From Giardia intestinalis (Eukaryota), in assembly GCA_000002435.2 (NCBI GenBank), contig CM018793.1: DNA of 64,000 nucleotides; one strand, 5' to 3'. Both the position numbers and the translations under genes were made by a program. Shown one piece after another: positions 40,358 to 59,345 of the stretch. Positions within the stretch are counted from its first letter, which is position 1. Each line of letters starts with the position of its first letter. The notes below the pieces were generated by a model. It had not been told where the DNA came from. It searched no databases and saw nothing but the letters and a program-made list of their open reading frames with translations.

Positions 40358-40427
40358 CTGCATGCATAATTTTAGAGTTTCCCGCGTTAAAAAATCCATT
40401 AAATTCCGCCAATGTGGAAAATTTAAA

Positions 40428-42872: not shown

Positions 42873-44797
42873 GTAAACACTTCTGTAAGTACTTCTGATA
42901 AAAAGAATTAAAATATAAATATATCTGGCGCGCCCCCAGTCCGGCGTAGTATAACGGCTAGAATGGTTGGTTCTCACCCAACAGATCCGGGTTCGATTCC
43001 CGGCGCCGGAGCGTTTCCCGCCTTCCTTCGTCTTAGCATACGCCGCCCCACGGTGGGCCCAGACCCTAAGTATCGATTTGCAAAGACAGCTGACCGGACT
43101 GTCGCACAAGTAAGTAAGCTCGTGATCTGCAGCCAGTGATGATGCATCCATATTTAGTGAACAATAAACCAATTCCTAGAACTCCGGAATATAACTGGCT
43201 GTACTATGAGCCGACACAAGCCTTGAAGATAGATCTGCCACAACGTAATTAACTCTGCGCTGGGCGCCAAAGGTAGCCAGTCTATAGTGAGCTAGGCTCC
43301 ACAGGTCACATTTAGTATTGCATGCATGAAACGTGCTACTCCTCTACACGGCAAGTATAGCTTGTGAAAGAATGCACACTTGATTCTCGGTGTCTAGCTG
43401 CAAAGGTGATACATCTTTTAATGCATAGATGAATGGGTTTTTTGTAGCTCAGATAAAAAAGGTAGAATGGGCATTGGAAGAGCAAAACTCTAGAAGATAG
43501 GTTGGCATTCATTAAAAGGTAAGCTTCGAAGTGCACAAGTCTTTCAACCACATTCTCACTTTTAGTTTGAAGATTGTTCCACCTCATACAATCGGATTCT
43601 TTTGCAATCGCTGAAATTGTCATACCATCTCTTTCTAATTCTAACTTAATAGGAAACGCAACTACAAAGCCATTGGTTAATGGCCAACGTCACTATCATT
43701 ACATGAGCTATTAACTACTCATCTCACCATCTTTGTACTATGTTTAGCTTATCTTTTCGAAGAAGACTAGCCCGAGGTCAAATCTCTATAGCACCAGCTG
43801 GGCGTACCTCATAGGTATGCAGATTACTAGAAGTATACATTAATACTATGCTTAGTTTCCCCTTTAGTTATATTATTTACCTACATAGTAGAGAGATTGT
43901 AAATCGCTCGGAAGAAGAGTGAACTTCTAAAACAAATACTTAGTAGAATAAGATATGCGACACTACTGTTAGCTGTAGCGTCTACCGCAAAAGCGCCGGC
44001 CCAACGAATCTTTCTACAGTGGCGCGCAAAGTGTACTCGCGCACGCTACTGTCCTGACCTAGACATGGGACAGAAAATAGCCACTGATAAGAATTTATAC
44101 CTAACAAGATTTAGAGCGGTTTCAGTCGAATACTAATAAAGCGGAACCATTTATCTAGTCTAACTAGGGTAAGAATAGGTCCCGATTGTTCCAGTTTCAC
44201 AGAAACAGGAACGTAGATCTGCTCAAGCTGTCAATGGCCGGAGCCCGCTGGCCTGAGATTTATGCTTGGATGCCATCAAACTAAATGTGAGCCCGATGGT
44301 CCCGCCTACAAGAACGGTCACGCCAAGGGTGATCCCTGTGATCGCGCCTGGGCCGAGGCGGCGCTTGACCGACGAGCCTCCGCAGTAGTTCTCCAGGGGG
44401 AGGTTTCCGTCCGCACAACGGAGGCAGAGGACGGCGCCTGACCCTGCCTGCGCCTGGCAGAGCCCGCACCCGTGGATGCCTGCCATCCGAAGCCCCTGGG
44501 GCGCCGTCTGGTCGCAGGGCACACAGTCCCGGGGGCCTCCGAGGGGCGTCGCCTGGAAGTACCTGTCGGCACAGGCCAGACAGCTGGCTGCCGACGAGCA
44601 GGCGGCGCACGGAGAGGGGCATGCCAGGCAGCGGTCGCCCGCCAGGTGCCAGCCCCTCTTGCAGGAGGTGCAGACACCCCCGTCGCAACGGGCGCAACCG
44701 GCCGCGGTGCACGGGCTGCACGAGCCCCCGGAGAGCCCGTAGCCTTCCGCGCAGGCGTGGCACGTGACCCCCGCCCTTGCCCGGTCTGCCGCGCACA
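42462..44797. repeat. Left arm of a 2,336-bp inverted repeat (partner at 52022-54357)
   Basis: Reverse-complement identity with 52022-54357 runs the whole length as far as I can read it, and every translated ORF I compared is identical between the arms. The outer boundary maps to 42462 / 54357 (ccgCAGCAGACC versus tcaCAGCAGACC). The inner boundary maps to 44797 / 52022. Contents: 3' end of gene 40428-42872, tRNA-Glu, 1.2 kb of AT-rich non-coding DNA, 3' end of the HCMP gene. Confidence 0.85.
42940..43011 (+). tRNA. tRNA-Glu (anticodon CUC)
   Basis: 72-nt cloverleaf. Acceptor stem tccggcg / cgccgga, fully paired. Anticodon stem gttgg / ccaac with loop ttCTCac. T-arm ccggg-ttcgatt-cccgg. Overall very similar to eukaryotic tRNA-Glu (same T-arm, CTCAC loop). 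Confidence 0.85.
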
Positions 44798-47700
44798 CGG
44801 CACAGTGTGGAATTCCCGTGAAACCGTTCTGGCTTGTCACATCATCGCACGGGCGGCAATCGGACGGAGCAGAGACAGAGCTCTGCGTCGAGTAGTATCC
44901 CTGGCTGCACGCGCTGCATGTGGTGGCAGATGTGCAGCGGAGGCAACCAGGCGCGCAGGGGATGCATTCGCTGCCGCTTGTCCAGAAGCCCTCTGTCGGA
45001 CAGTCGCGGGGGCACAGGAGCATCCCGTCCAGAGTCAGCGCCTTGCGTCCACTCTCGCACGCCAGACAGACGACCGGGCCCACGCGATCAGCGAGGCGGC
45101 ACCTCTGGCAGCCGTCGACCCCTGTCCATCCTCCGCCTGCCCCCGCGTCGTTGCACAGCAGGCACCTGCTGGCGCTGGAGTGGGTCGGCCTGACCTCGAC
45201 GGCATTCTCGTTGCATCCTATGCACGCTATACTTTGCTCCCTACAGAGGCATTGCGGAGGGCAGATCTTGGGGACGCACTCTTCGCCGTTCCAGATGTGC
45301 TCTGGGACGCAGCTGGTGCATCTCGTGCTTGTACACGTTGCACAGTTGTCGATCGCGCACGGGATGCAGCTGTCAGCGGCCTCGTAGTACGTCATTGGAC
45401 AGACTGCATGGCAGGTCACCTCTGTCCCGGTCGAGAGCGCCTTGTAGCCCGGGAGACAGTCCTTGCACAGTGCGGGGCCCGCTACCTTCGGAGCCTCACA
45501 GAGCCTGCAGCCACTCACTCCCACCCAGCTGTCCCTGCCAGACGTGTCCGAGCAGGCAAGACAGGCTCCCAGGCCAGGCGTGGTGAACGTGCCAAAGTAT
45601 CCCTCGGCGCACTCTTTGCATTTATCAGCCCCCATACCATCGCACGTCTTGCACGCTGGGTGGCACGCAATGCAGGACGTGCTCTGGAGATAGTATCCGG
45701 CCCTGCAAGCAGTGCACGTGTTGGGGTCGTCTACGCACGCGCCGCAGTTGGGATCGGAGCAGCGCACGCAGCCCTTATCTGTCTTGGAAAAGCCTGCCTT
45801 GCATGCAGTGCACCCGGACGTCGACTCCGTGGTGTCTCCACAAATGCTCGTCCCCGGCGCCCTTTCCTTTGTGTAGCAGGCGCCCTCGAAGAGGAACATC
45901 CCGTCTCCGCAGTGCGAGCACACGCCCTTGCTGCAGATAAGTCCCTCCTTCGGCTCTGCGCACGTGCCATCCAGAGGAACCTCTCCGTCGATCAGGCAGC
46001 GCCCGCAGACGACCTGGCCGTCGACGACCACTGCATCGCGCTCATCGCAGATACCCGTGCCGGGGTACTCGCCTGCGGAGTAGCAGCCCCCCTGGTGGAG
46101 GAAGTAGCTCCCTCGGCACGCGGTGCAGCGGCCCTTCTTGGCGTCCTTTACGCATGGACCGGCAAGTGAGCGAGCTTCTCCAGGATAGAGTGTGCAGACG
46201 CCGTCGATCGGCACATAATCACTCGACGCGCACTGCGAGCACAGAGACCCGTCCATGACTGTGCAGGAGCCCCAACTGCAAGCGTCCTGCCCCACTCTTT
46301 TGCAGGGCTTCGTGCAGTATGCCCCGGCCCCGACGCCTGTCAGCGTGTAGGGCTGAATGCATTCTGTGCAGTACTTCACGTCTATCTCGCAGCTGGCGCA
46401 GTTGGAGACGGCGCAGGACATGCACGTCAGCGTCTCCTTGTTGTGACGGTAGCCGGGTCTGCACCGCCGACAGGTTCCGGCATCGCGGCCTGTTCCAAGG
46501 ACTTCGCAAATCCCACTTCCAGGAGTAGTCGTGATATCATAGCAGCCTCCCTCGTGGAAGAAGTAGTTCTCGGGACATATGACGCATAAACCGCTGGAGC
46601 ACGAGACACCATCTGGCACATCCTTTGTACACAGGCCATTTATTGGAAACTCTCCTGCAAGATTGCACTGCTTGCAATATGTGCGCCTTCCGACTGTCAG
46701 AAGCTCCCTACAAATGCCAGACCCGGGAATCGCGGCAGGGTCATAGCACCCGCCCATGTAGAGCATGTATCCGCGTAGGCACCCTGTGCAGACGCCCTTC
46801 CCCTTCTCGCAAACATAGTCTGTGTCATGCCCCGTGCAAGCCCCGTTGATCGGCCACTCGTCATCCAGCGCACACCTGGAACAGTACAGCGAGCCCATCG
46901 CCGTACAGCTGCCAGCCTTACAGTTACCAGACTCTGATCTACTGTCGTTGCAGCTTTGGATACACCGCGAGCCGTCCTCGCTAGGAATGTGCTTGTCCTT
47001 GCATCGCGTGCAGATGACCCTCTTTGGTGTCTCGCTTGGATAGCACTCTGTGCAGCCGTCAACGCCCGTGTATCCATTTGTTGCACCTGTATCATTACAT
47101 AGGATGCAGGACTCCTTTGTGGGATCGAGCAGGTCTGTGCTGTAGTACCCGGAGGCACACGATGTGCACACCCCTGCAACCGCTGAGTCGACGGCCACCG
47201 CGCAGACCACCGTTCCAGGCGAGCGTCCTATCTCGTAGCACCCCCCGGCGTGCAGGAAGAACCTTGGCCCGCAGCGTGTGCACGACGTGGGGCTTGGTGT
47301 GGCAGCGACACATTGCGATCTGATTGCCCTAGTGTTAGCCAATGCAACGCACGAGCCGTCGATCGGGACTTCCCCGTCTCGCTTGCATTGCTTGCAGATC
47401 GTGTACGGGCCCAGCGTAGCCTGGTGCTGGCTGTCACATATGGCAGTCCCAGCTGTTGCGCCTTTAGCATAGCAGCCCCCATAGTAGAGGAGGTGCGTGT
47501 CCTTGCAAGCCGCACACGTCCCGCTGGATGGGGTTGTACGGATGCAAGCGTCGTCATTTGCCTTGCACTTTCCGTCGATGATAACGCTGCTTAATAGCGC
47601 ACAGCGGCTGCATGCGAGCGTGCCGTTGACATTGCAGTATCCTGCAGCACAGGACGTGGGAAGCAATCCAACGGGGCATTCCTCAGTACATATGTTATTC

Positions 47701-50700
47701 CTCAGTGCAAATCTATCCTTGCAGACCTTACACCCAGTACTATCGCACTTCTTACACCCGGGTGTGCATGCAACACACGAGTTCCCACTGGCATAGTACC
47801 CATCCTGGCAAGAGGCGCAGGTATTTGCCGCATCGCACGTCAAGCAGTGGAGCACGCTGCAAGCAACACACTTTCCGGCCGCAAGATAGAAGCCGTCTGC
47901 GCATCCCGTGCATTTTGTTGCACTATCCTGGCACGTCTTGCAGCTCTTATCACACATCTGACAGAACTCAGCAGACTCATACATCCCATCCGGACACTTA
48001 GTAAAGCATGCAACCGTTGCAGGACTTCCATCCTTGGTTATCTGGAATGACTTAACACCCTGTTTGCACGACCTGCAGATGCCATCTCCCTTGACGGTGC
48101 AGTCATCCGAGACCTTGCACTCCCCATCAACGGGCACCTCATCCTTCTGCTTACACTTCGCACAAAACGACCCTGCGCCCGATGTCACGACATCCTGGGC
48201 GTCGCAGATGTCCCCCGCCTCGAACGACCCCGCTTCATAGCAGCCACCCTTGTACTTGATGTATCTGTGGGTGCAGTATTTGCAGGTGCCATTAGCTTGT
48301 TTATATTGTATGCACACGCCTGCGGCCACTGAAGCACACACGCCGTTGACTGGGCCCTCGGCGTCAGCAGCGCACTGGGAGCAGTAGAACGTGCCCAGGA
48401 CATCACACTTGTCCTTTCTGCACCTGTGCTCCTTGGGGTCTGCCTCTGCCTCAACGCACGTTTGCACGCACTCCGTTCCCCCGTTCATTGGTCTGTAGAA
48501 CTGCTCGCAGGCAACACAGACCAGGAGTCCGTTGGAAACCTTGCAGCTCTTGCAGTGGGGTATGCCCTTCAGCGTGTCGCTGTTCTCTGTGCACGGAACA
48601 CACGAGTCGCTGATACTTGAGCGGTCGGGGGGCGCGTAGTATCCCTCTTTACAAATATCACAGATCCCATTGTCAGATCCGATGCTTTTGCATAGTATAG
48701 TTCCGGGAGCAAGGTCTGCTGAGACACAACTCCCTTTAAGCAGAAAATGATTGTCAACACAATAATAACATCGTCCAGTAGGCACACGGGCCAAAACGCA
48801 CGGAGAAAGCTTGCTGTCAGACATAGGAATGCAGTGCCCATTAACTGGCAGATCAGATAAAATGCTACATCGGAAGCAATACGTCACGCCATCCATTACA
48901 GCATACTCGCCACAAATGGCGTTTCCTGGATAGGTCTTTGGATTATAGCAACCATTCTTATAATAAAAGAATAATCCTGCGCATCCAGTGCATGTACCAT
49001 TTGGCACACCCGACTTCTTACATATATTCTCCTTATCGACACTAGTACATTTGCCATCGATAAGAGCATCTGTATTCAACGCGCACTTTGAACAAAAGGT
49101 AGCTCCAAGCACATTACAAAAATCAACGGCACACTGACCTGATCTAGGTTGTAGCGAGTCAGTCGGGAGAGGGCAGCTTTCCTCGCATACACCGTTAACC
49201 AATAAATAGCGATCTAGACAGCTTGTGCAGTGTCCTGGACCAGAGATTAGGGGAGCTAAACACGTTCTACAAAAAGCTATACCGGTGTAGCCGAAAATTC
49301 CACCTACATCGCTACAGTGAATGCACGATTGAATCGTTGAGCTTCGAACAGGATTGAGATAATAAGTTGGTCCACATACTTCGCAAACGCCTGCTCTTGC
49401 TTTAGTGCATATCTGTGGATAAAATTCTGGTGTAAAGCAAACTGTACGGTGCAAGAAATATCCAGCTCCACAACCAGTGCACACTCCCTCTTTGCACGTA
49501 TTTCCATAAGTTTCGGTGGTGCAAGATCCGTTAATAGGATATTCTGTTTCGAGAGTGCATTTCTTACAATATGTAAATCCATAACCTGTAAGTGTGTGTT
49601 CCTTTTCACATATCGGTATTACTGGCTTAATCGTATTGTAACATCCACCGTAGTAGAGAAGATAGCCTTTTGAGCATCTCCGGCATCTACCGCCCTCCAT
49701 AACAGCACACTCGGGAGCATCTTCCCGTAGAGGCCGGCAAACCCCATCTATGGGAACCTCACGTTCTATACTACACCTTTCGCAGAATGTCTTATCACGA
49801 ACAACACATCCTCCGTAAATGCAGCCCCCAGGCGTGAGTTCCTCCGTGCAAGCTTTAACACATGAGTCCTTACCTTCATTCTTTTGAAGCTGATAACTAT
49901 AAGCGCAACTATTGCAAACGTCCACGCCCCCATCACAGTTTACGCAGTACTTGATGTTACATGGTCTGCATTCTGATCCAACATGGGTATATCCAGAGGC
50001 ACAAACTGAACAAGTAGCTGTGTCGTCGACATCCTTACAAATACTGAGGCCGATGGGCGTTCCTTTTTCATAGCATCCTCCTTTGTAAGGAAAATACCGA
50101 GGTGGACACTCTGTGCAGCGGCCAGATACTACTTTGGCGCCCATTAAGGCAGATGTGCACTGTCCATTTATGGGGCACTCATTATCATTTGCGCAACAAG
50201 AACAAAGTGCAGACGAGAAAATGTTGCAATGATCAGACTTACATGACCCCGGAGCAAGACCGTTTGTCCAGCACGATATTTCGCAGTGATTTTCTGTTAG
50301 GAGATATCCCCTTTCGCAGACTGTGCATTGCGCTCGTTGGCCTCGTGGAAGAGGTAAGCATTTTGCACAGTGAGCTATGCCAGCGTTATCGTACTGAAGA
50401 AGTACATCATTACAATACTTGCACATACCTTTCCCCATCGAAAACACTTGAAAGAATATTTCTGGAGCACAAGAAGTACAATCATTCGCGTTAGGACCAA
50501 GGCATGAAGCACAATTTGAATGGCATGGAATACAATCTCCTCTGTTGCGAAAATAGTTGTCTACACACGCTTTGCATTTCCCAGCATTATCCACCTCGTT
50601 ACATATGACGTTTCCTGGAGCAGATTCTGGGGAATAACATCCACCTTGGTAAATGAAGTAATTCTTACCACAAGAGGTACACTTAATAGAGACAGGTGTT

Positions 50701-51812
50701 GGTAGACCGCCGGCTGAATCTCGACAACCAGAAGTTACAACTAGCGGATTATTGTATGGCACACATACTCCGTTGATTGGAACGAAACCAGGCGTACCAC
50801 ATTTCGCACAAAAGGTTGCACCCCTAATATCAGTAGTGTAGGCACATGCCTTAAGTCCTAGCTCAGTATCCACACGATAACATCCGCCTTGAAAAAGGAT
50901 GTATCCCTTTCCACAGTTATCACACATTCCCAACGAGATGGATATATGGAGACAAATATTCTGGTCATTAGAAGTGCAAACTCCGTTAATCGGTACTTCG
51001 GTGCCAAGAGAACAGTGGGCACAGAGTTTGTTCTCAAAAGCAGTACATCCATCTTCAGCACACTTTCCAGACTTGGCTATTTTACTTTTATCACAAGTGA
51101 GAATACATGTACGAGTCTGTGAATCATATGAATAGTTATCAATACAAAGAAGACACTCATTAGGCGTTGCACCCGTACACATCAAGCAATTGCTAGGGCA
51201 AGTAAGACACTGATTTCCAGCCAAATAATATTGTGCTTGACAAGAGAGGCATTTCAAAGAATCACTGGTACTCATTGTACAAGAGCGACAATTTTCTATA
51301 CCGTAAGGTTTATCTGAACACCTTTTACAGAGAGACCCATCAAGAAAACGATCCGGAGGACAACTCAGGCACTGATTTTCAGAACTTCCAGAACAAGAAC
51401 TGCAGTGAGCATGACAGGTCTTACAAGTCTGAGGAGTTGCTTGAGTGTCGAGATAGTAACCTAAAGAGCATATTTTGCAAAGATTCCTGGCTAGATCAAC
51501 GCAAATAAGATTTCCAGGACTATAAAGTATATTGTAACACCCGCCCTCATGAATGAAATAATTCTTTTCTACACATGAAGAACAGGTTTTAGCAGAGTTT
51601 TTAAGAGGCTTACCTGCCTCAGAAGCGCAGCCGGAGGCCACAGCCCTGGGGTCGTCGTACGGGATACAGAGTCCGTTTATAGGAACCTCACCAGGGGTGG
51701 CACACTCAGAACAATACCGGCCCTCTAAAATAGTGCATTTTCCTATAGCGCACTCTCCAGGTCGATTCCCATGGGTACATGAGAGTGCAAGTCCAAAAAT
51801 GATCGCCAGCAT
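44223..51812 (-). CDS. High-cysteine membrane protein (HCMP, VSP-like), 2,529 aa. The 3' 575 nt lie in the left inverted repeat.
   Basis: Signal peptide 'MLAIIFGLALSCTHG'. Hundreds of CXXC / CXC motifs. A recurring 'GGCY' motif (YQGGCY, FQGGCY, LYYGGCY, ...). A single C-terminal TM 'ITGITLGVTVLVGGTIGLTFSLMA' with a short tail 'SKHKSQASGLRPLTA'. This is HCMP-like rather than VSP-like because there is no CRGKA ending. ATG at 51812 with AT-rich upstream. Stop TGA at 44223-44225. Composition switches from AT-rich codons (5' ~3.1 kb) to very GC-rich (3' ~4.4 kb) near 48650. Confidence 0.9.
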   Translation of the reverse strand: MLAIIFGLALSCTHGNRPGECAIGKCTILEGRYCSECATPGEVPINGLCIPYDDPRAVASGCASEAGKPLKNSAKTCSSCVEKNYFIHEGGCYNILYSPGNLICVDLARNLCKICSLGYYLDTQATPQTCKTCHAHCSSCSGSSENQCLSCPPDRFLDGSLCKRCSDKPYGIENCRSCTMSTSDSLKCLSCQAQYYLAGNQCLTCPSNCLMCTGATPNECLLCIDNYSYDSQTRTCILTCDKSKIAKSGKCAEDGCTAFENKLCAHCSLGTEVPINGVCTSNDQNICLHISISLGMCDNCGKGYILFQGGCYRVDTELGLKACAYTTDIRGATFCAKCGTPGFVPINGVCVPYNNPLVVTSGCRDSAGGLPTPVSIKCTSCGKNYFIYQGGCYSPESAPGNVICNEVDNAGKCKACVDNYFRNRGDCIPCHSNCASCLGPNANDCTSCAPEIFFQVFSMGKGMCKYCNDVLLQYDNAGIAHCAKCLPLPRGQRAQCTVCERGYLLTENHCEISCWTNGLAPGSCKSDHCNIFSSALCSCCANDNECPINGQCTSALMGAKVVSGRCTECPPRYFPYKGGCYEKGTPIGLSICKDVDDTATCSVCASGYTHVGSECRPCNIKYCVNCDGGVDVCNSCAYSYQLQKNEGKDSCVKACTEELTPGGCIYGGCVVRDKTFCERCSIEREVPIDGVCRPLREDAPECAVMEGGRCRRCSKGYLLYYGGCYNTIKPVIPICEKEHTLTGYGFTYCKKCTLETEYPINGSCTTETYGNTCKEGVCTGCGAGYFLHRTVCFTPEFYPQICTKARAGVCEVCGPTYYLNPVRSSTIQSCIHCSDVGGIFGYTGIAFCRTCLAPLISGPGHCTSCLDRYLLVNGVCEESCPLPTDSLQPRSGQCAVDFCNVLGATFCSKCALNTDALIDGKCTSVDKENICKKSGVPNGTCTGCAGLFFYYKNGCYNPKTYPGNAICGEYAVMDGVTYCFRCSILSDLPVNGHCIPMSDSKLSPCVLARVPTGRCYYCVDNHFLLKGSCVSADLAPGTILCKSIGSDNGICDICKEGYYAPPDRSSISDSCVPCTENSDTLKGIPHCKSCKVSNGLLVCVACEQFYRPMNGGTECVQTCVEAEADPKEHRCRKDKCDVLGTFYCSQCAADAEGPVNGVCASVAAGVCIQYKQANGTCKYCTHRYIKYKGGCYEAGSFEAGDICDAQDVVTSGAGSFCAKCKQKDEVPVDGECKVSDDCTVKGDGICRSCKQGVKSFQITKDGSPATVACFTKCPDGMYESAEFCQMCDKSCKTCQDSATKCTGCADGFYLAAGKCVACSVLHCLTCDAANTCASCQDGYYASGNSCVACTPGCKKCDSTGCKVCKDRFALRNNICTEECPVGLLPTSCAAGYCNVNGTLACSRCALLSSVIIDGKCKANDDACIRTTPSSGTCAACKDTHLLYYGGCYAKGATAGTAICDSQHQATLGPYTICKQCKRDGEVPIDGSCVALANTRAIRSQCVAATPSPTSCTRCGPRFFLHAGGCYEIGRSPGTVVCAVAVDSAVAGVCTSCASGYYSTDLLDPTKESCILCNDTGATNGYTGVDGCTECYPSETPKRVICTRCKDKHIPSEDGSRCIQSCNDSRSESGNCKAGSCTAMGSLYCSRCALDDEWPINGACTGHDTDYVCEKGKGVCTGCLRGYMLYMGGCYDPAAIPGSGICRELLTVGRRTYCKQCNLAGEFPINGLCTKDVPDGVSCSSGLCVICPENYFFHEGGCYDITTTPGSGICEVLGTGRDAGTCRRCRPGYRHNKETLTCMSCAVSNCASCEIDVKYCTECIQPYTLTGVGAGAYCTKPCKRVGQDACSWGSCTVMDGSLCSQCASSDYVPIDGVCTLYPGEARSLAGPCVKDAKKGRCTACRGSYFLHQGGCYSAGEYPGTGICDERDAVVVDGQVVCGRCLIDGEVPLDGTCAEPKEGLICSKGVCSHCGDGMFLFEGACYTKERAPGTSICGDTTESTSGCTACKAGFSKTDKGCVRCSDPNCGACVDDPNTCTACRAGYYLQSTSCIACHPACKTCDGMGADKCKECAEGYFGTFTTPGLGACLACSDTSGRDSWVGVSGCRLCEAPKVAGPALCKDCLPGYKALSTGTEVTCHAVCPMTYYEAADSCIPCAIDNCATCTSTRCTSCVPEHIWNGEECVPKICPPQCLCREQSIACIGCNENAVEVRPTHSSASRCLLCNDAGAGGGWTGVDGCQRCRLADRVGPVVCLACESGRKALTLDGMLLCPRDCPTEGFWTSGSECIPCAPGCLRCTSATTCSACSQGYYSTQSSVSAPSDCRPCDDVTSQNGFTGIPHCAVCAADRARAGVTCHACAEGYGLSGGSCSPCTAAGCARCDGGVCTSCKRGWHLAGDRCLACPSPCAACSSAASCLACADRYFQATPLGGPRDCVPCDQTAPQGLRMAGIHGCGLCQAQAGSGAVLCLRCADGNLPLENYCGGSSVKRRLGPGAITGITLGVTVLVGGTIGLTFSLMASKHKSQASGLRPLTA

Positions 51813-52020
51813 GTGATGCTATTTTTACATAAACGCCTTTATACATTAGAATCACACATCATAAATTTGGCTTTTCCAGAGCTAATTTCCTATTTTTGAA
51901 TACAAAAATATATTCCCATCTTTCAATCTGGTCTATTTATCACACTACAGTAGTGTTATTTAAACGCTCGTATGTGATGCTCCTAAAGATGGTTGAATCG
52001 TGCTAATTTTGCATTGTATT

Positions 52021-52596
52021 ATGTGCGCGGCAGACCGGGCAAGGGCGGGGGTCACGTGCCACGCCTGCGCGGAAGGCTACGGGCTCTCCGGGGGCTCGTG
52101 CAGCCCGTGCACCGCGGCCGGTTGCGCCCGTTGCGACGGGGGTGTCTGCACCTCCTGCAAGAGGGGCTGGCACCTGGCGGGCGACCGCTGCCTGGCATGC
52201 CCCTCTCCGTGCGCCGCCTGCTCGTCGGCAGCCAGCTGTCTGGCCTGTGCCGACAGGTACTTCCAGGCGACGCCCCTCGGAGGCCCCCGGGACTGTGTGC
52301 CCTGCGACCAGACGGCGCCCCAGGGGCTTCGGATGGCAGGCATCCACGGGTGCGGGCTCTGCCAGGCGCAGGCAGGGTCAGGCGCCGTCCTCTGCCTCCG
52401 TTGTGCGGACGGAAACCTCCCCCTGGAGAACTACTGCGGAGGCTCGTCGGTCAAGCGCCGCCTCGGCCCAGGCGCGATCACAGGGATCACCCTTGGCGTG
52501 ACCGTTCTTGTAGGCGGGACCATCGGGCTCACATTTAGTTTGATGGCATCCAAGCATAAATCTCAGGCCAGCGGGCTCCGGCCATTGACAGCTTGA
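52021..52596 (+). pseudogene. 3' fragment of an HCMP gene (191 codons: a few CXXC repeats, a TM segment and a tail), identical to the HCMP C-terminus. It begins with an ATG placed exactly at the repeat boundary, so it could be expressed as a mini-HCMP.
   Basis: From 52022 the sequence is the reverse complement of 44223-44797. The HCMP codon gtg (V) reads atg here. Upstream is an AT-rich 'gctaattttgcattgtattATG'. The 20 nt just upstream still show weak similarity to the HCMP (LILHCIMCAADR versus GIPHCAVCAADR). That suggests a diverged HCMP copy whose 3' end was homogenised with the left copy. Confidence 0.5.
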
Positions 52597-53807
52597 GCAG
52601 ATCTACGTTCCTGTTTCTGTGAAACTGGAACAATCGGGACCTATTCTTACCCTAGTTAGACTAGATAAATGGTTCCGCTTTATTAGTATTCGACTGAAAC
52701 CGCTCTAAATCTTGTTAGGTATAAATTCTTATCAGTGGCTATTTTCTGTCCCATGTCTAGGTCAGGACAGTAGCGTGCGCGAGTACACTTTGCGCGCCAC
52801 TGTAGAAAGATTCGTTGGGCCGGCGCTTTTGCGGTAGACGCTACAGCTAACAGTAGTGTCGCATATCTTATTCTACTAAGTATTTGTTTTAGAAGTTCAC
52901 TCTTCTTCCGAGCGATTTACAATCTCTCTACTATGTAGGTAAATAATATAACTAAAGGGGAAACTAAGCATAGTATTAATGTATACTTCTAGTAATCTGC
53001 ATACCTATGAGGTACGCCCAGCTGGTGCTATAGAGATTTGACCTCGGGCTAGTCTTCTTCGAAAAGATAAGCTAAACATAGTACAAAGATGGTGAGATGA
53101 GTAGTTAATAGCTCATGTAATGATAGTGACGTTGGCCATTAACCAATGGCTTTGTAGTTGCGTTTCCTATTAAGTTAGAATTAGAAAGAGATGGTATGAC
53201 AATTTCAGCGATTGCAAAAGAATCCGATTGTATGAGGTGGAACAATCTTCAAACTAAAAGTGAGAATGTGGTTGAAAGACTTGTGCACTTCGAAGCTTAC
53301 CTTTTAATGAATGCCAACCTATCTTCTAGAGTTTTGCTCTTCCAATGCCCATTCTACCTTTTTTATCTGAGCTACAAAAAACCCATTCATCTATGCATTA
53401 AAAGATGTATCACCTTTGCAGCTAGACACCGAGAATCAAGTGTGCATTCTTTCACAAGCTATACTTGCCGTGTAGAGGAGTAGCACGTTTCATGCATGCA
53501 ATACTAAATGTGACCTGTGGAGCCTAGCTCACTATAGACTGGCTACCTTTGGCGCCCAGCGCAGAGTTAATTACGTTGTGGCAGATCTATCTTCAAGGCT
53601 TGTGTCGGCTCATAGTACAGCCAGTTATATTCCGGAGTTCTAGGAATTGGTTTATTGTTCACTAAATATGGATGCATCATCACTGGCTGCAGATCACGAG
53701 CTTACTTACTTGTGCGACAGTCCGGTCAGCTGTCTTTGCAAATCGATACTTAGGGTCTGGGCCCACCGTGGGGCGGCGTATGCTAAGACGAAGGAAGGCG
53801 GGAAACG

Positions 53808-53879
53808 CTCCGGCGCCGGGAATCGAACCCGGATCTGTTGGGTGAGAACCAACCATTCTAGCCGTTATACTACGCCGGA
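53808..53879 (-). tRNA. tRNA-Glu (anticodon CUC), second copy in the right repeat arm
   Basis: Exact reverse complement of 42940-43011. Confidence 0.85.
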
Positions 53880-53946
53880 CTGGGGGCGCGCCAGATATAT
53901 TTATATTTTAATTCTTTTTATCAGAAGTACTTACAGAAGTGTTTAC

Positions 53947-54312
53947 TTATGAGTATGAGCTTGCGGGCCGCGCACAGCCCTCTGCGCTCGGTGGTGTCCA
54001 GGGACGGTCAGAGGCTGCCTTTGCGCCGCTTTGTGCCGCCATCTGCTCCCGCTCGAGGATCTCGACGTCCTGCAGACGGGCATCCAGAGGGCTGCGGGCA
54101 GAGGACTGGGGCGGGCACTGCGGGAACGGCCCCAGAGCTGGCTGCGCCTCGCTGGGGGCCCAGGTTGCCGACCCCCGAAGCCCGTCAGCAGCGAGGGCTT
54201 GCGCCTGGCTCTCGGCCGCCCCCAGCTGCGCGACCAGCATGCCGATCTGCGCCTGCTGGTCCTGGATGAGCTTCCGGTAGACGTGATTCTGCTGCTCCGT
54301 GTCTGCGATCAT
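53947..54312 (-). pseudogene. 3' gene fragment: a copy of the last ~135 codons of the ankyrin/coiled-coil gene 40428-42872. It sits just downstream of, and out of frame with, gene 54363-59345.
   Basis: Translation 'MIADTEQQNHVYRKLIQDQQAQIG...ARPASSYS' is identical to the C-terminus of the 40428-42872 product. The TAG of the upstream gene lies 6 nt outside the repeat. Confidence 0.6.
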
Positions 54313-54362
54313 CCGGAGGTACTTCTCCCGGGACTCGATCCCGAGCGCGGTCTGCTGTGAAA

Positions 54363-57300
54363 CTACCGTGCTTTTTCGAAGGGAAGTAACAAGCGAATAA
54401 TTTCAGTTCTTTCTGCCTTTATAGCCAAATCAAGTGCAGTAGCCCCGTCAGCCCTCTCCACGCCAGATTCGTATTCTCTGAGCACACTTACGGCATTTTT
54501 GTTTCCCATTTGTGATGCGAGCATTAAGGCTGTTGTACCATCTGGCCTGACACATCCTACATGGCGCAACTGTCGCCTCAAAACTCCAATTGGTGCATTC
54601 GAAAGTACAGCTCTCATCAGAGGAGTATCATCATGGTGTTCTTTAAGTAGAGCATCGCCATAAGAATCTTCGGTCTCGATCTTATGATTCGTTGCTGTAT
54701 TAATGGAGGAAGCAATGCCAGATGAAGACTCTAGATATCCATCTAGTTTCCTATCTGCCATGAGCATTCTTAGCTTCTTATTAGTTTGAGAAAGAGCATC
54801 AAGTCTTTGTAATGCTCCATCATGCTCCTTGCTTAGCTGCTCATATGACTCCTTATACTCACTTAAATGGTTTCTAGTGGAAATAAGTTGCTGTTCGATA
54901 TCATGGACCTGCCTATTTAGAGCTGTCGTCGTTTCATCCATATGAGATTTGAGATTGATAAATGAATGCACTGTTCTATTCAGTTTATCTTGTAATTCCT
55001 GCTTCTCTGACTCTAATAGCTCAACTGTACTAGATAAATTAATATCAGGCTCGGTAGCAGTGTCTGTCTGTGTCTGCGCTATAAGTGCTGTTAATGCTAG
55101 GTTTTCGTTAGCAAGTTGAGAAGCAGATGTGCGTAACTCTAATTGCTCTCTACGAGCTACCTGAAGCTCTGATGTGATATTGGACAGTTCCCTCTCAAGT
55201 TGAAGCCCTCGGCTAGTTTCTAACTCCAGCTGCCTCTTGGCAGATTCTAATTCTATAGAAATCTCGTAATTCTTACCCTTTAGTTCATCTTTCTGTTGTT
55301 TGAGGTCCAGTAACTCTGCATTCCTCTTGTCACTTATAATGTTATCATGTTCAGTCAAAGCTATGCGCTCTTGAAGCTGATTTTCTGCCTTCCTTAGCAA
55401 TGCTGTAACGGTGCTTATTTGATTTTCCTTTGAAGCTAGCTCTTCACGAAGATACCGTATTTCGTTCTGATGAATAGATAGCTCATTCTCAGCGTTATCT
55501 ATGATATCACGTGTCGCTTCAGTTTCTAGTAATTCATGACGTAAAGAGCGATTGAGAAGTTCTGTCTGGTGCAACTTAGATTGTATAGATGCCATCTGAA
55601 TACTCAGATGTTGGACAGTTTGAACAAGTGAGTTAGGAACGGCTACTTTATCTACTTCTGTGTATTTTTGTATTGAGTTGGAAAGTGTGCGACTGAGAGA
55701 TAAATGGTTAAATGCAGAGTTTCTTGCATCTGTGCTTATATTACAAAGATCTAATGCTGAATCTTCCTCGTTTCCACCACAAATACTCTGTAGCAGCTCC
55801 GCATATTGTATCCCCGAGAGTGTTATAATAGAATCAGCAGGAGAAAGCTCCGAATAACAGTCATGTAAAGATACGTTCAGATCGCTCTTCTTTACCGTGG
55901 TTGTTTGAGAAGTGCTCCGGGGAACTATAATGTTAACAATACTCGGGTCAGCATCATATTCATTAATCTCATTCAAATTCTCTGCTTGTTGCATTATAAC
56001 ATCGCGTGCTGGCTGGTTGTCAACGTCTGCATTGGAATGCAATTTTGTTGATGTAGACTGATATATTGCTGTTTGAACAATCTTGTCGCTGAATTGTATC
56101 ACATCGTGGTTTTCTAAATTATCCACGGTTTGAGTCTCTGTTGAAATAGCATTTTGGCGTTGCAAAATGGTGCGCCGCAACTCAACTAATTGTGCATTAA
56201 CATCTAAGAGCTCATCTTGTAACTCATCATTTCGTATCTGTAATTCCTGTCTATTTTTAATTATAGAATCAGATGCATCTCTTGCACGTTGAACTTCACT
56301 TTGCAATTGCTGGATTCGAAGATCCTTTTCTTGCACTTCAAGGTTAAGCTTATGGATATGCTGTTGAAGCGTTTCTTCAGTCGTTTTGTTCGCTGACGCT
56401 AATAGCTGACCTGCTATTTGCTCATTTGCAATGGATAACTTATTCTGAAGGTCATCATTTTGAGTATTGAGGGAGTCACATAATTCCTCAAGGTAACGTA
56501 GTCGTGCAGAGGTATCAGATGTGGGCACATGTCCTTTGACATCATGTTCTTGAGATAAACTATATAGGCCTTTTGGAGCAGAGGCTATTTGGGTTTCTAG
56601 TTGTAAACTGGAAACATGAGGCTCAGGATTGGCCGATCCGGATGTATCTAGATGTACAAGTACAGATGAAAGTTGTATGGTATCTGAATCTGATATCGCA
56701 GGACGTTTGTCTGTCTGTGTAAGAGTTAGCACGTTGGCTGATTCTTCTAAATCTAAATAGTCTCGAATAATGTGTGTCGTCTGTCCATATGCATTATCTG
56801 ATCCACTAGACCTAGAGATACTTCTAGACAATATTAGGCTTTGAGCCATGATAGACCGATCAACCAGTTGACATGATTGATCCGAGATTTGTCTTAGCTT
56901 CTCTGATAGCTGCACAATCGTATCATTTGCTAACAGCAGATCGTGTTCTGCTTGGGTATTCAGAGCAATTTGTTCAGTAAGTTGAATAATTTGAACATCC
57001 TTGGCTTTAAGTAAAGGTATCATCTCCTGTAGGTTCTCTACTTCTAGCATCTTTTCTTCTAACTGTTTTTTTAAATCGACTAGGTCATCTGTCGAGTGGG
57101 CAGATGCAACAGTCTCGTATTCTGCTAATTTTGCATCTAAAATGTGAACCAGTTTGGATAGCTCATCATTCTCATCTCTCACTTGCTGTAGTTCTAACAT
57201 CACGGATTTGACATCAGTATTATCAGAAACATCAGCAAGTTTATCAGACACTGCACAATCTGGGGTACGTTGTAGCTCTTCCTCCCGACGTTTCTCTAAC

Positions 57301-59345
57301 TCTGTGATTTGCTCCTTGCTCTTTCTGAGCTCATCTTCTACAGATAACTTTGATAGCTTAACCTCCTCAAGCTGAAGAGAAAGGCTGGCTATCATTCTGG
57401 ACGTTCCTGAGGCATTTGTTACCTGACTAAGCTCCTCCAAGTCACGAATCTTCAAACGCTGATCATCAATAAGCTTTTCCTGTTCTGCCACTTTATCTCT
57501 TAGTTGGGTGATTGTCTCATCAACGGGAAATACTTCATTAACTGCGCTTTTTTCTAAAAATCTATAAATACTACTGTTCTTATCTATAACAATCGATGGA
57601 CTGGAAAACAAATTTGGAGCATTTAAGTCCAAGCCAAGACAATCGTTTTCCTGCATGCTTTTCAGGGTGTTCATAGATGCTCCCGATAGTCCACCATTAG
57701 GGCTAAGTAAAGAGTTGGTACTTTGAGAATCCTCCAAAATACTGCTCAGATCAGTTGGAGCAGCAATAGTAATCTTGGGTGACTCAGAGACTGCAGTTAA
57801 CACGGCGGAATTGTGGACAACCGAGGGTATGCCTGTGTGCTCATACGGGCTTGCAGTCCTAGTGAGTTGTCGTGAGGGTTCAATTGGAGAAAATGATAGA
57901 GGTTCTTCCTTTAATAAAAGAATAAGAGATTGTAAAACAGAAGACATTGCATCTGGTAGATTGGAATCGTAAATATTTGCAGATTGCACTAAAGCTTTAA
58001 GAGATTGGATTAAACCAGTGTGTTCTTGCGTCAGTGTATTAAGCTGTTCAGCCTGGTGCTGTGAGAGAGACTCGTGCTCAGACAACCGGGCCGTGAGATC
58101 AGTGATTGCTTTTTCCTTTTCTTCTAATTGGCCAAACAACAAACTGATTGCATCGTCTTCTTGTGTGAGTACCTGTTGAATATTTCCATTCTCATCCGTC
58201 AAAATAAGCTCCTTAGGAGCCTGCTCTGTATTCAGGCCAATGTTATCAGAAGCTATAGTCATAGAAGTGGACGCAGACTTGCGTTCAATCTGAATTTCTG
58301 CCTTCAAGTCAGTAATAGTCTTAGTTAGTATAGCAATAGTTCCATTTCTGAGCTCTAGCTCTTGATTTAGCAGAGCTATTTCGGCTTCCAACGTAACCTT
58401 GGCTGCTTCGTCGCTAGTTATCAGAAGGGGGTCGTTTTTAAGCAAAATATGGCCAATTTGCGATTGCATTTCTGATAGAGACAGCCGTAATCGAGTGTTT
58501 TCCTTCATTAAAGAGGCCAATTCAGGAGTTTGATTAGTCTGTAAAGATGCAGACTTAACTACTTGTTCTCCCGATGAGGTAATTATTTTATGGTCTAAAA
58601 TGTGGGCGCCTATTGTTAGAGATGCTACTTGTAATCTGAGACGTTCCAATTCTTCTTTTTGTGAACAAATAAGTGATGCTGCTGGGTATTCTTGCAACTT
58701 CCCATGTATCAATGACTCCAGCTGTTTCATCTCGTTATTCTGTCGAACAAATACATCACGAAGAACCGTGTTTGCATTCAGAAGCGCTTTGAGATCGTCG
58801 CGCTGCCGTACAACAAGAGATTGAAGGGAATCCAATTGAACATAAGCCTCAGACAGCTCGCTAACCATCTTCTTGACCTGCTCAGCGTTATACTCCTGAA
58901 CGCACGCAACGGTTTCAACCCGAAAGAGGAGTTCACCACTACCTTCACTGTCAGTGGAATTCTCCGTAGGAAGTTCCTTACTATAATACTGAGCCATAGC
59001 TCTCATAGCACGATAGCTACGAGACCAATGTGCCACATTGTATGCGGTGTATAGGTCCTTTAGGAGAATGTGGCCTTCCAAATCCAATAGGCAAAGACAC
59101 ACTTCCGGATTATCAGCTTCAGCAGCAAGCATTAGTGCTGTATAGCCCCGGTTGTCACAACAGCCTGCCTCGTGCTGCTTGAGAATATGCACCATACGAT
59201 AATCATTGCGCATTGCAGAGTACATAAGGCCTGTGAGACCGCTGGGAGTCTTAGTTCCCTTGTACCTAGCAAGGGAATGCTGAACAACTGCATAATCGGA
59301 CCGAAGAATGGCGTCAAACCAGCCTTCTTCATTCTCAATTAGCAT
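54363..59345 (-). CDS. Ankyrin / long coiled-coil (~1,300 aa) / ankyrin protein, 1,660 aa (Protein 21.1 / GASP-180-like family)
   Basis: 'MLIENEEGWFDAILRSDYAVV' plus N-terminal ANK repeats, a very long heptad region, and C-terminal ANK repeats (TALMLASQMGNKNAV..., TALDLAIKAERTEII). ATG at 59345 after 'ccgaaaaATG'. Stop TAG at 54363-54365. Confidence 0.85.
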   Translation of the reverse strand: MLIENEEGWFDAILRSDYAVVQHSLARYKGTKTPSGLTGLMYSAMRNDYRMVHILKQHEAGCCDNRGYTALMLAAEADNPEVCLCLLDLEGHILLKDLYTAYNVAHWSRSYRAMRAMAQYYSKELPTENSTDSEGSGELLFRVETVACVQEYNAEQVKKMVSELSEAYVQLDSLQSLVVRQRDDLKALLNANTVLRDVFVRQNNEMKQLESLIHGKLQEYPAASLICSQKEELERLRLQVASLTIGAHILDHKIITSSGEQVVKSASLQTNQTPELASLMKENTRLRLSLSEMQSQIGHILLKNDPLLITSDEAAKVTLEAEIALLNQELELRNGTIAILTKTITDLKAEIQIERKSASTSMTIASDNIGLNTEQAPKELILTDENGNIQQVLTQEDDAISLLFGQLEEKEKAITDLTARLSEHESLSQHQAEQLNTLTQEHTGLIQSLKALVQSANIYDSNLPDAMSSVLQSLILLLKEEPLSFSPIEPSRQLTRTASPYEHTGIPSVVHNSAVLTAVSESPKITIAAPTDLSSILEDSQSTNSLLSPNGGLSGASMNTLKSMQENDCLGLDLNAPNLFSSPSIVIDKNSSIYRFLEKSAVNEVFPVDETITQLRDKVAEQEKLIDDQRLKIRDLEELSQVTNASGTSRMIASLSLQLEEVKLSKLSVEDELRKSKEQITELEKRREEELQRTPDCAVSDKLADVSDNTDVKSVMLELQQVRDENDELSKLVHILDAKLAEYETVASAHSTDDLVDLKKQLEEKMLEVENLQEMIPLLKAKDVQIIQLTEQIALNTQAEHDLLLANDTIVQLSEKLRQISDQSCQLVDRSIMAQSLILSRSISRSSGSDNAYGQTTHIIRDYLDLEESANVLTLTQTDKRPAISDSDTIQLSSVLVHLDTSGSANPEPHVSSLQLETQIASAPKGLYSLSQEHDVKGHVPTSDTSARLRYLEELCDSLNTQNDDLQNKLSIANEQIAGQLLASANKTTEETLQQHIHKLNLEVQEKDLRIQQLQSEVQRARDASDSIIKNRQELQIRNDELQDELLDVNAQLVELRRTILQRQNAISTETQTVDNLENHDVIQFSDKIVQTAIYQSTSTKLHSNADVDNQPARDVIMQQAENLNEINEYDADPSIVNIIVPRSTSQTTTVKKSDLNVSLHDCYSELSPADSIITLSGIQYAELLQSICGGNEEDSALDLCNISTDARNSAFNHLSLSRTLSNSIQKYTEVDKVAVPNSLVQTVQHLSIQMASIQSKLHQTELLNRSLRHELLETEATRDIIDNAENELSIHQNEIRYLREELASKENQISTVTALLRKAENQLQERIALTEHDNIISDKRNAELLDLKQQKDELKGKNYEISIELESAKRQLELETSRGLQLERELSNITSELQVARREQLELRTSASQLANENLALTALIAQTQTDTATEPDINLSSTVELLESEKQELQDKLNRTVHSFINLKSHMDETTTALNRQVHDIEQQLISTRNHLSEYKESYEQLSKEHDGALQRLDALSQTNKKLRMLMADRKLDGYLESSSGIASSINTATNHKIETEDSYGDALLKEHHDDTPLMRAVLSNAPIGVLRRQLRHVGCVRPDGTTALMLASQMGNKNAVSVLREYESGVERADGATALDLAIKAERTEIIRLLLPFEKAR

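Follow-up and report, generated by a model that had tools for sequence, protein, structure and literature searches.

The window analysed here, 64,000 nt in length, belongs to chromosome 5 of Giardia intestinalis WB (ATCC 50803), which has a size of 4.02 Mb and appears as NC_051860.1 in the tables of a 2022 preprint (10.1101/2022.03.07.483299). The locus begins with an 836-aa Protein 21.1/ankyrin-repeat gene (Ankyrin repeat protein 1; 40362–42872, plus strand), followed by the full-length, TMK-like HCMP gene GL50803_113319, which codes for 2529 aa including a signal peptide (44223–51812, minus strand). A gene for a 1660-aa ankyrin/coiled-coil protein (54363–59345, minus strand) lies on its far side. 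Between the latter two, a 191-codon truncated copy of HCMP is found at 52021–52596 on the plus strand, with its ATG at 52021–52023 and its stop codon at 52594–52596. It is annotated as GL50803_28057, under the name "High cysteine membrane protein" (XP_001709275.1, KAE8305132.1, UniProt A8B5P6).

A base-by-base comparison identified positions 52022–54357 as the exact reverse complement of positions 42462–44797, with 0 mismatches over 2336 nt; a repeat search reports the same pair as 2358 nt, with slightly extended ends. A perfect inverted repeat of 2.3 kb cannot have arisen by chance. The locus is laid out as a palindrome, with 2.3-kb arms around a unique spacer of 7224 nt (44798–52021) that comprises the 5' body of the HCMP gene (codons 1–2338) and a 209-nt region upstream of it. 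In the left arm (42462–44797), the Protein 21.1 and HCMP genes have their functional 3' ends, and the "mini-HCMP" that had been proposed from the sequence alone corresponds to the innermost part of the right arm (52022–54357). Beyond the HCMP tail, each arm contains about 1.35 kb (1350 nt) of non-coding DNA, a gene for tRNA-Glu(CUC) and the final 411 nt of the sequence coding for Protein 21.1. Since the repeat extends 1.76 kb past the small reading frame, the underlying event was not specific for HCMP.

The two tRNA-Glu(CUC) genes, located at 42940–43012 (plus strand) in the left and at 53807–53879 (minus strand) in the right arm, were found by ARAGORN and by Rfam (56.4 bits). No RNA other than the tRNA was detected in the arm by Rfam, and the 95-aa and 101-aa ORFs of the arm have no Pfam match. 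The duplication has thus doubled this tRNA gene. Both copies are likewise present in the assemblage E isolate P15, and one copy each was seen in a contig of the assemblage B isolate GS (L005) and in contig L001. The identity between WB and P15 is 97% for the tRNA and 57–78% for the adjoining arm DNA, and selection for a second tRNA copy could be one reason why the duplication was kept.

The outer part of the right arm (53947–54357, minus strand) is a truncated copy of the 3' end of Protein 21.1. It includes a 121-aa ORF (53947–54312) that is annotated as hypothetical protein GL50803_119672 but is probably not a gene, only the copied last codons of Protein 21.1. In the expression tables of the preprint its TPM is about 0–4 with uniquely mapped reads, versus 62–112 when two-fold multi-mappers are counted (10.1101/2022.03.07.483299). 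We also considered a once larger palindrome that would have included the 1660-aa gene. This gene, however, has only generic ankyrin/coiled-coil similarity to Protein 21.1, which is not colinear at the outer boundary, and the idea was rejected.

Truncated reading frame and its predicted product

Compared with the last 576 nt of the HCMP gene, the small frame shows a single difference, located in its first base: A at 52021 instead of G, by which GTG becomes ATG. The product equals HCMP residues 2339–2529 at 190 out of 191 positions (99.5%), the exception being V2339, which is replaced by M. Thus, the truncated copy is real and the one-base change is present as it had been described, although it turned out to be lineage-specific (see below). 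The statement that the ATG sits exactly at the repeat boundary is true as to its position, but it is partly circular, because the edge of perfect identity is set by the first mismatch and this mismatch is the very G-to-A change that creates the ATG.

The product has 22 Cys (11.5%) and 10 CXXC motifs and matches the Pfam VSP family (PF03302, E = 1.5e-14). It contains one hydrophobic segment with its peak at residues 152–170, followed by a 14-residue tail, KHKSQASGLRPLTA, which differs from CRGKA. The roughly ten CXXC units, the TM and the cytoplasmic tail named in the sequence-only reading are therefore all there. Judged by the features that define HCMPs/CRMPs, the product shows the Cys and CXXC content with VSP similarity as well as the C-terminal TM with a non-CRGKA tail; what it lacks is the signal peptide. 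Its N-terminus reads MCAADRARAG, that of the parent HCMP MLAIIFGLALSC. In agreement with the earlier reading, no signal peptide was found in the product, the best N-terminal 12-residue hydropathy window reaching 0.59 versus 2.5 in the full HCMP. The only other in-frame Met residues, 104 and 175, are not followed by a signal-like segment either. With the signal peptide absent, the topology of HCMP is out of reach. A single TM near the C-terminus and no signal peptide is the sequence geometry of a tail anchor, and from this geometry we infer that the product would be tail-anchored, with its Cys-rich part in the cytosol.

The frame was known before. In Table S7 of Rodriguez-Walker et al. (10.1101/2022.03.07.483299), GL50803_0028057 is given with SP = N, 22 Cys, 10 CXXC, one TM and a 14-aa tail, and GL50803_28057 is listed there as a "Cys-rich type II pseudogene". 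As defined in this preprint, type II pseudogenes have an ORF but no signal peptide at any in-frame Met, screened for with Phobius, SignalP and TOPCONS; 14 former HCMPs are now counted as pseudogenes with an ORF but without a signal peptide. GL50803_28057 fits this definition. Our literature search found no mention of it in the main text of papers, it is absent from the supplements of the HCMP RNA-seq paper, and a homology search with the 191-aa product yielded one unrelated short match. An exact look-up of the WB protein brought up no contig records. The ORF is annotated and already classed as a pseudogene; the palindrome and its conservation between assemblages are, as far as could be seen, undescribed.

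Region upstream of the ATG

The region between the HCMP ATG and the ATG of the small frame (51813–52020) is AT-rich, is 79% identical to P15 and has short uORFs on the plus strand at about 51972 and 51977. The sequence-only reading had pointed to an AT-rich, initiator-like sequence immediately upstream of the ATG. The first part of this description holds, as the 20 nt in front of the ATG consist of 75% A+T, within the range of the real genes in the window (0.40–0.85). The resemblance to an initiator is weaker. Using a weight matrix built from the commonest TSS variants that the WB TSS-seq study lists in its Table 3, the best score next to the ATG is only -1.7, where random 43-nt windows have their 75th percentile at -2.8 and their 90th at 0.9. 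Among the real genes in the window, 10 out of 15 score above 2.6 and five fall below the -1.7 of the small frame; the promoter of HCMP itself scores 6.2.

The strongest matches to the initiator consensus lie within a palindromic AT-rich element, ATTTTTGAATACAAAAAT, at 51892–51909, with scores of 11.2 on the plus strand (51899–51909) and 9.6 on the minus strand. P15 has a similar plus-strand motif, ATTCAAAAAAT, at the equivalent place. The Logan contig L002 (SRR25571675) begins at 51904, the central A of this element, crosses the junction and ends at 52915, 319 nt past the stop codon. If SRR25571675 is an RNA-seq run, the contig could be a transcript of the small frame. Read directly from the sequence, a start at 51904, 117 nt upstream of the ATG, gives a 117-nt leader with two short uORFs, which is a disadvantage in Giardia, whose leaders are very short (WB TSS-seq study). 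Reads within the arm map to both copies and are not assignable to one of them.

The locus in other Giardia lineages

In P15, a single 185-kb contig shows these genes in the same order, together with an inverted repeat of its own. Its arms show 0 mismatches over 2328 nt, in an assembly of 454 reads of at most about 500 nt, so that the arm-specific evidence is that of the boundary regions only and the orientation of the spacer is beyond such reads. WB and P15 share the HCMP codon at which the inner edge falls (V2339/C2340); the 1660-aa gene's stop codon is 5 nt away from the outer edge in WB and 14 nt away in P15. Between WB and P15 the arms are about 80% identical overall (non-coding DNA 74%, HCMP tail 87%, tRNA 97%), compared with 85–89% in the surrounding coding DNA.

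From the AII isolate DH, an 8.2-kb contig covers the entire spacer and both inner junctions. Its two arm ends match each other perfectly for 460 nt and share the 13 sites at which they depart from WB. Moreover, the DH left arm (523 nt, joined to the HCMP body) is the same as the right arm of the independent contigs L001 and L002, sharing all 15 differences from WB. Arm divergence thus amounts to about 3% between AI and AII and about 20% between A and E. Eight more contigs, assembled from metagenomes and isolate runs, have the identical junction ...ATTATG/TGCGCGG. Several contigs end just inside the arm, at 30 nt (L012, L013), 48–49 nt (L008, L011) or 141 nt (L007, k141), and contigs L001 and L003 end exactly at its outer edge. 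Ends located k-1 or k nt inside the arm are what is expected of De Bruijn graph contigs at a true repeat edge.

The locus is therefore not an assembly artefact. The sequence-only reading had itself considered an assembly duplication, and a repeat that was collapsed and then copied into the WB reference would indeed yield perfectly identical arms. A false duplication, however, is extremely improbable when P15, DH and eight independent contigs all show the same junctions, and the small frame has identifiers of the kind given in the original annotation (XP_001709275.1, A8B5P6) in addition to its KAE record. The latter, judged by its accession pattern, presumably stems from the 200x PacBio reassembly. 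This WB reassembly was built for resolving duplications (Xu et al. 2020, PMC7000408).

Because the repeat edges coincide in WB and P15, the duplication must have preceded the divergence of assemblages A and E. Left to themselves, the arms would by now differ at hundreds of sites, yet there are zero differences, which argues for repeated homogenisation. The shared boundaries are those that a single ancestral duplication would leave, and arms that do not differ inside one genome but do so from lineage to lineage match the pattern of concerted evolution. We infer gene conversion as the probable homogenising mechanism. The GS contig of assemblage B, which was reached via the Protein 21.1 orthologue, ends 1268 nt past the stop codon of this gene, inside the arm, and is uninformative on the duplication; its non-coding DNA within the arm gave no alignment with WB.

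The ATG is present in 9 out of 9 assemblage A sequences, which differ from each other by no more than 3%, so this carries little weight. In P15 the codon at this position is GTA, there is no ATG among the 21 in-frame codons upstream, and the 189-codon copy of the tail is free of Met. Since P15 has no start, the ATG is a change specific for assemblage A at an eroded repeat edge. A gene call of 178 aa at the P15 junction (L004, 9253–9789, minus strand) is in a frame other than that of the HCMP tail, is rich in Arg, Pro and Gly, has no Pfam match and is probably spurious.

These data bear on the question whether a real small protein, specific for assemblage A, is made from the locus. In that case the AT-rich upstream sequence would drive transcription, the new ATG would be used, and a tail-anchored/type III protein with the anchor and tail of HCMP would result. 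The frame is intact in all nine assemblage A sequences, AT-rich DNA precedes it, its TM ends 14 residues before the C-terminus as in tail anchors, its 3' sequence is that of HCMP and should be processed in the same way, mRNAs with very short leaders are translatable in Giardia, and contig L002 is possibly transcript-like. We nevertheless regard such a protein as unlikely. The signal peptide is missing, the ATG is missing in P15, the initiator match beside the ATG is weak, a start at 51904 would bring along the long leader with its two uORFs, and Rodriguez-Walker et al. (10.1101/2022.03.07.483299) treat the frame as a pseudogene. Furthermore, conversion alone accounts for the open frame: as long as the copy is converted against the tail of its parent, it stays open without any selection acting on it. 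The functional mini-HCMP suggested by the sequence-only reading finds no support for the same reasons. The small frame most likely is a pseudogene, and these sequence features together suggest that it has no function.

Parent gene and its paralogues

In the data tables of the preprint, GL50803_113319 has unique peptides and a TPM of about 25–65 (10.1101/2022.03.07.483299). When the full HCMP was used for a homology search, the matches were limited to a P15 paralogue and proteins of ciliates, and no assemblage B orthologue was obtained. The gene is intact in WB and P15 but broken in non-WB isolates of assemblage A. In seven independent contigs (L001, L003, L007, L008, L011, L012, L013) a 14-nt tandem duplication (GGATGTTATCGTGT) at nt 926 of the coding sequence, about position 50886 of the window, shifts the frame and brings in a stop at codon 323. 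In DH (L006) the break is a different one, from TCT to TAG at codon 1280. Judging from these reading frames, the full-length HCMP seems to be dispensable in sub-assemblage AII. Despite the disruption, the inner arm ends that were sampled (up to 523 nt) are still identical.

The tails of the TMK-like HCMPs, taken as the last 191 residues, were compared for P0010, P0003, P0006, P0012 and P0002, which are encoded on different chromosomes. Paralogues within WB have identities of 0.87–0.90 and those within P15 of 0.90, compared with 0.84 between orthologues. For the first 2300 residues this order is reversed (orthologues 0.86, paralogues 0.73–0.74), which suggests ectopic gene conversion between the TMK-like paralogues, apparently confined to their 3' ends. 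The G+C content of the HCMP gene climbs steadily from 43% at its 5' end (50–52 kb) to 63% at its 3' end (44–46 kb), and the non-coding DNA of the arm is not G+C-rich. Such a gradient would fit GC-biased conversion, or else a composition effect confined to the tail, where conversion is frequent.

Inner edge of the repeat

From the few HCMP-like codons upstream of the ATG, the sequence-only reading had suggested that a second HCMP gene once stood here and was overwritten by conversion. The scenario could take two forms: a head-to-head pair of which one member lost its 5' 7 kb, or another HCMP whose tail was replaced. WB does contain head-to-head pairs of identical CRMPs, the tails of paralogues appear to undergo ectopic conversion, and there is a borderline similarity to HCMP over about 20–60 nt past the perfect boundary, including an in-frame H-C-x-x-C. 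A global alignment anchored at the boundary gave p = 0.005 against shuffled sequences and a borderline 0.053 against other 60-mers of HCMP. By contrast, when the 60 nt past the boundary were aligned locally as DNA, the result was not significant (p about 0.38 in WB, 0.36 in P15). A blastx search of the 209-nt region against HCMP found nothing below E = 1.9, its best colinear match covering 8 residues (ILHCIMCA/IPHCAVCA). The region is AT-rich, interrupted by stop codons and conserved with P15 in the manner of promoter-like DNA. Finally, conversion of an HCMP remnant would by itself be insufficient, since the arm also carries sequence that has nothing to do with HCMP.

A second HCMP is thus highly improbable. 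That the arm runs through non-coding DNA, a tRNA gene and a part of another gene points to an inverted segmental duplication instead. Conversion tracts that stop short of the very edge are expected to leave a few tens of decayed bases there. By these alignments the residual homology would extend over at most a few tens of bases, and it fits the decayed edge of a duplicated segment equally well.

Possible roles at the RNA level

On the strand of the 1660-aa gene, the first canonical poly(A) signal (AGTRAAY) is located 416 nt downstream of that gene's stop codon and is the copied TAGTAAAC of Protein 21.1. From this arrangement, the 1660-aa mRNA may have an unusually long 3' UTR derived from Protein 21.1 coding sequence, or transcription may read through into the arm. 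Read-through that crosses the right arm, the spacer and the left arm would open the way to a 2.3-kb dsRNA hairpin or to antisense RNA against the HCMP tail, by which Dicer and Argonaute might dampen HCMP, its TMK-like paralogues, whose tails are 87–90% identical, or Protein 21.1. The perfectly complementary arms, the 416 nt free of a canonical signal and the maintenance of the repeat across assemblages are compatible with such a role. So are the antisense reads that appear on the 121-aa fragment in the preprint's tables when multi-mapped reads are counted (10.1101/2022.03.07.483299). The conservation, however, is equally well explained by the duplicated tRNA gene or by neutrality, and the literature search found no small-RNA report specific to this locus; we consider an RNA-level role very unlikely. 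In a broader form, the palindrome could be non-neutral either through a small tail-anchored protein of assemblage A with a cytosolic Cys-rich domain or through hairpin or antisense RNA that would tune HCMP and its TMK-like paralogues via RNAi. From what the sequences suggest, this too appears quite unlikely.

Evolution of the locus and comparison with known systems

We think it probable that the small frame is a pseudogene fragment, a by-product of an old inverted segmental duplication that has been kept intact by recombination between the arms. The original segment of 2.3 kb would have consisted of the convergent 3' ends of the Protein 21.1 and HCMP genes, with the tRNA-Glu gene and non-coding DNA between them. 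Its second copy would have been inserted in inverted orientation, with the promoter of HCMP on one side and the next gene's stop codon on the other. Recombination between the arms, by gene conversion, whether or not the 7.2-kb spacer was inverted in the process, may since then have maintained their identity, the truncated HCMP tail being repeatedly corrected against the functional one. In the lineage of assemblage A a G-to-A change at the decayed inner edge would then have turned a Val codon (GTG) into ATG, yielding a 191-codon ORF that could be annotated. Any product of it would be tail-anchored at best, with the CXXC domain facing the cytosol, opposite to its orientation in HCMP.

In terms of Giardia annotation, one inverted duplication accounts for both GL50803_28057 and GL50803_119672, which form its truncated ends; they ought to be marked as gene fragments instead of being counted as one HCMP and one hypothetical protein. 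Their RNA-seq and proteomic signals are inseparable from those of their parents, save at the junctions. The locus furthermore offers a clean and datable case of arm-to-arm gene conversion in Giardia, with a duplication that precedes the A/E split and zero differences between the arms. TMK-like HCMPs also seem to have their tails homogenised inside each genome. For biology at large the significance is small; its relevance is to Giardia annotation.

Human Y-chromosome palindromes and the inverted repeat of plastids likewise have arms that are identical within a genome, diverged between lineages and conserved in their boundaries. They differ from the present locus in scale and organism, and conversion is here deduced, with no event directly observed. 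Comparable, too, are the psi-VSPs of G. intestinalis and G. muris, Cys-rich ORFs with a TM and a tail but without a signal peptide that are treated as pseudogenes; in G. muris they are essentially untranscribed. Unlike these, which are mostly found in arrays and decayed, the small frame appears to have been kept perfect by conversion against an expressed parent. The entry for GL50803_28057 in Rodriguez-Walker et al. (10.1101/2022.03.07.483299) concerns this very ORF, the 191-aa sequences being identical; the accessible part of that preprint contains neither the 2.3-kb repeat nor the parent GL50803_113319 nor a comparison of assemblages.

The locus also resembles duplications known from Giardia itself. 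Duplications make up 6.9% of the WB genome (Xu et al. 2020, PMC7000408). Inverted pairs of identical VSP or CRMP genes, often found beside ankyrin or NEK genes and truncated pseudogenes, are documented in WB and G. muris (PMC7000408; PMC7641422; 10.1101/2022.03.07.483299). Such pairs, like Cys-rich pseudogenes that lack a signal peptide, are common in Giardia. As in those pairs, the copies studied here are inverted, Cys-rich, 100% identical over kilobases and shown not to be assembly artefacts. Those pairs, however, duplicate whole genes, whereas here the last 190 codons of HCMP have been duplicated together with a tRNA gene and a part of the neighbouring gene, the rest of HCMP serving as the spacer. 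The locus is thus a variant of the Giardia inverted-pair pattern in which only the tail of the gene has been duplicated.
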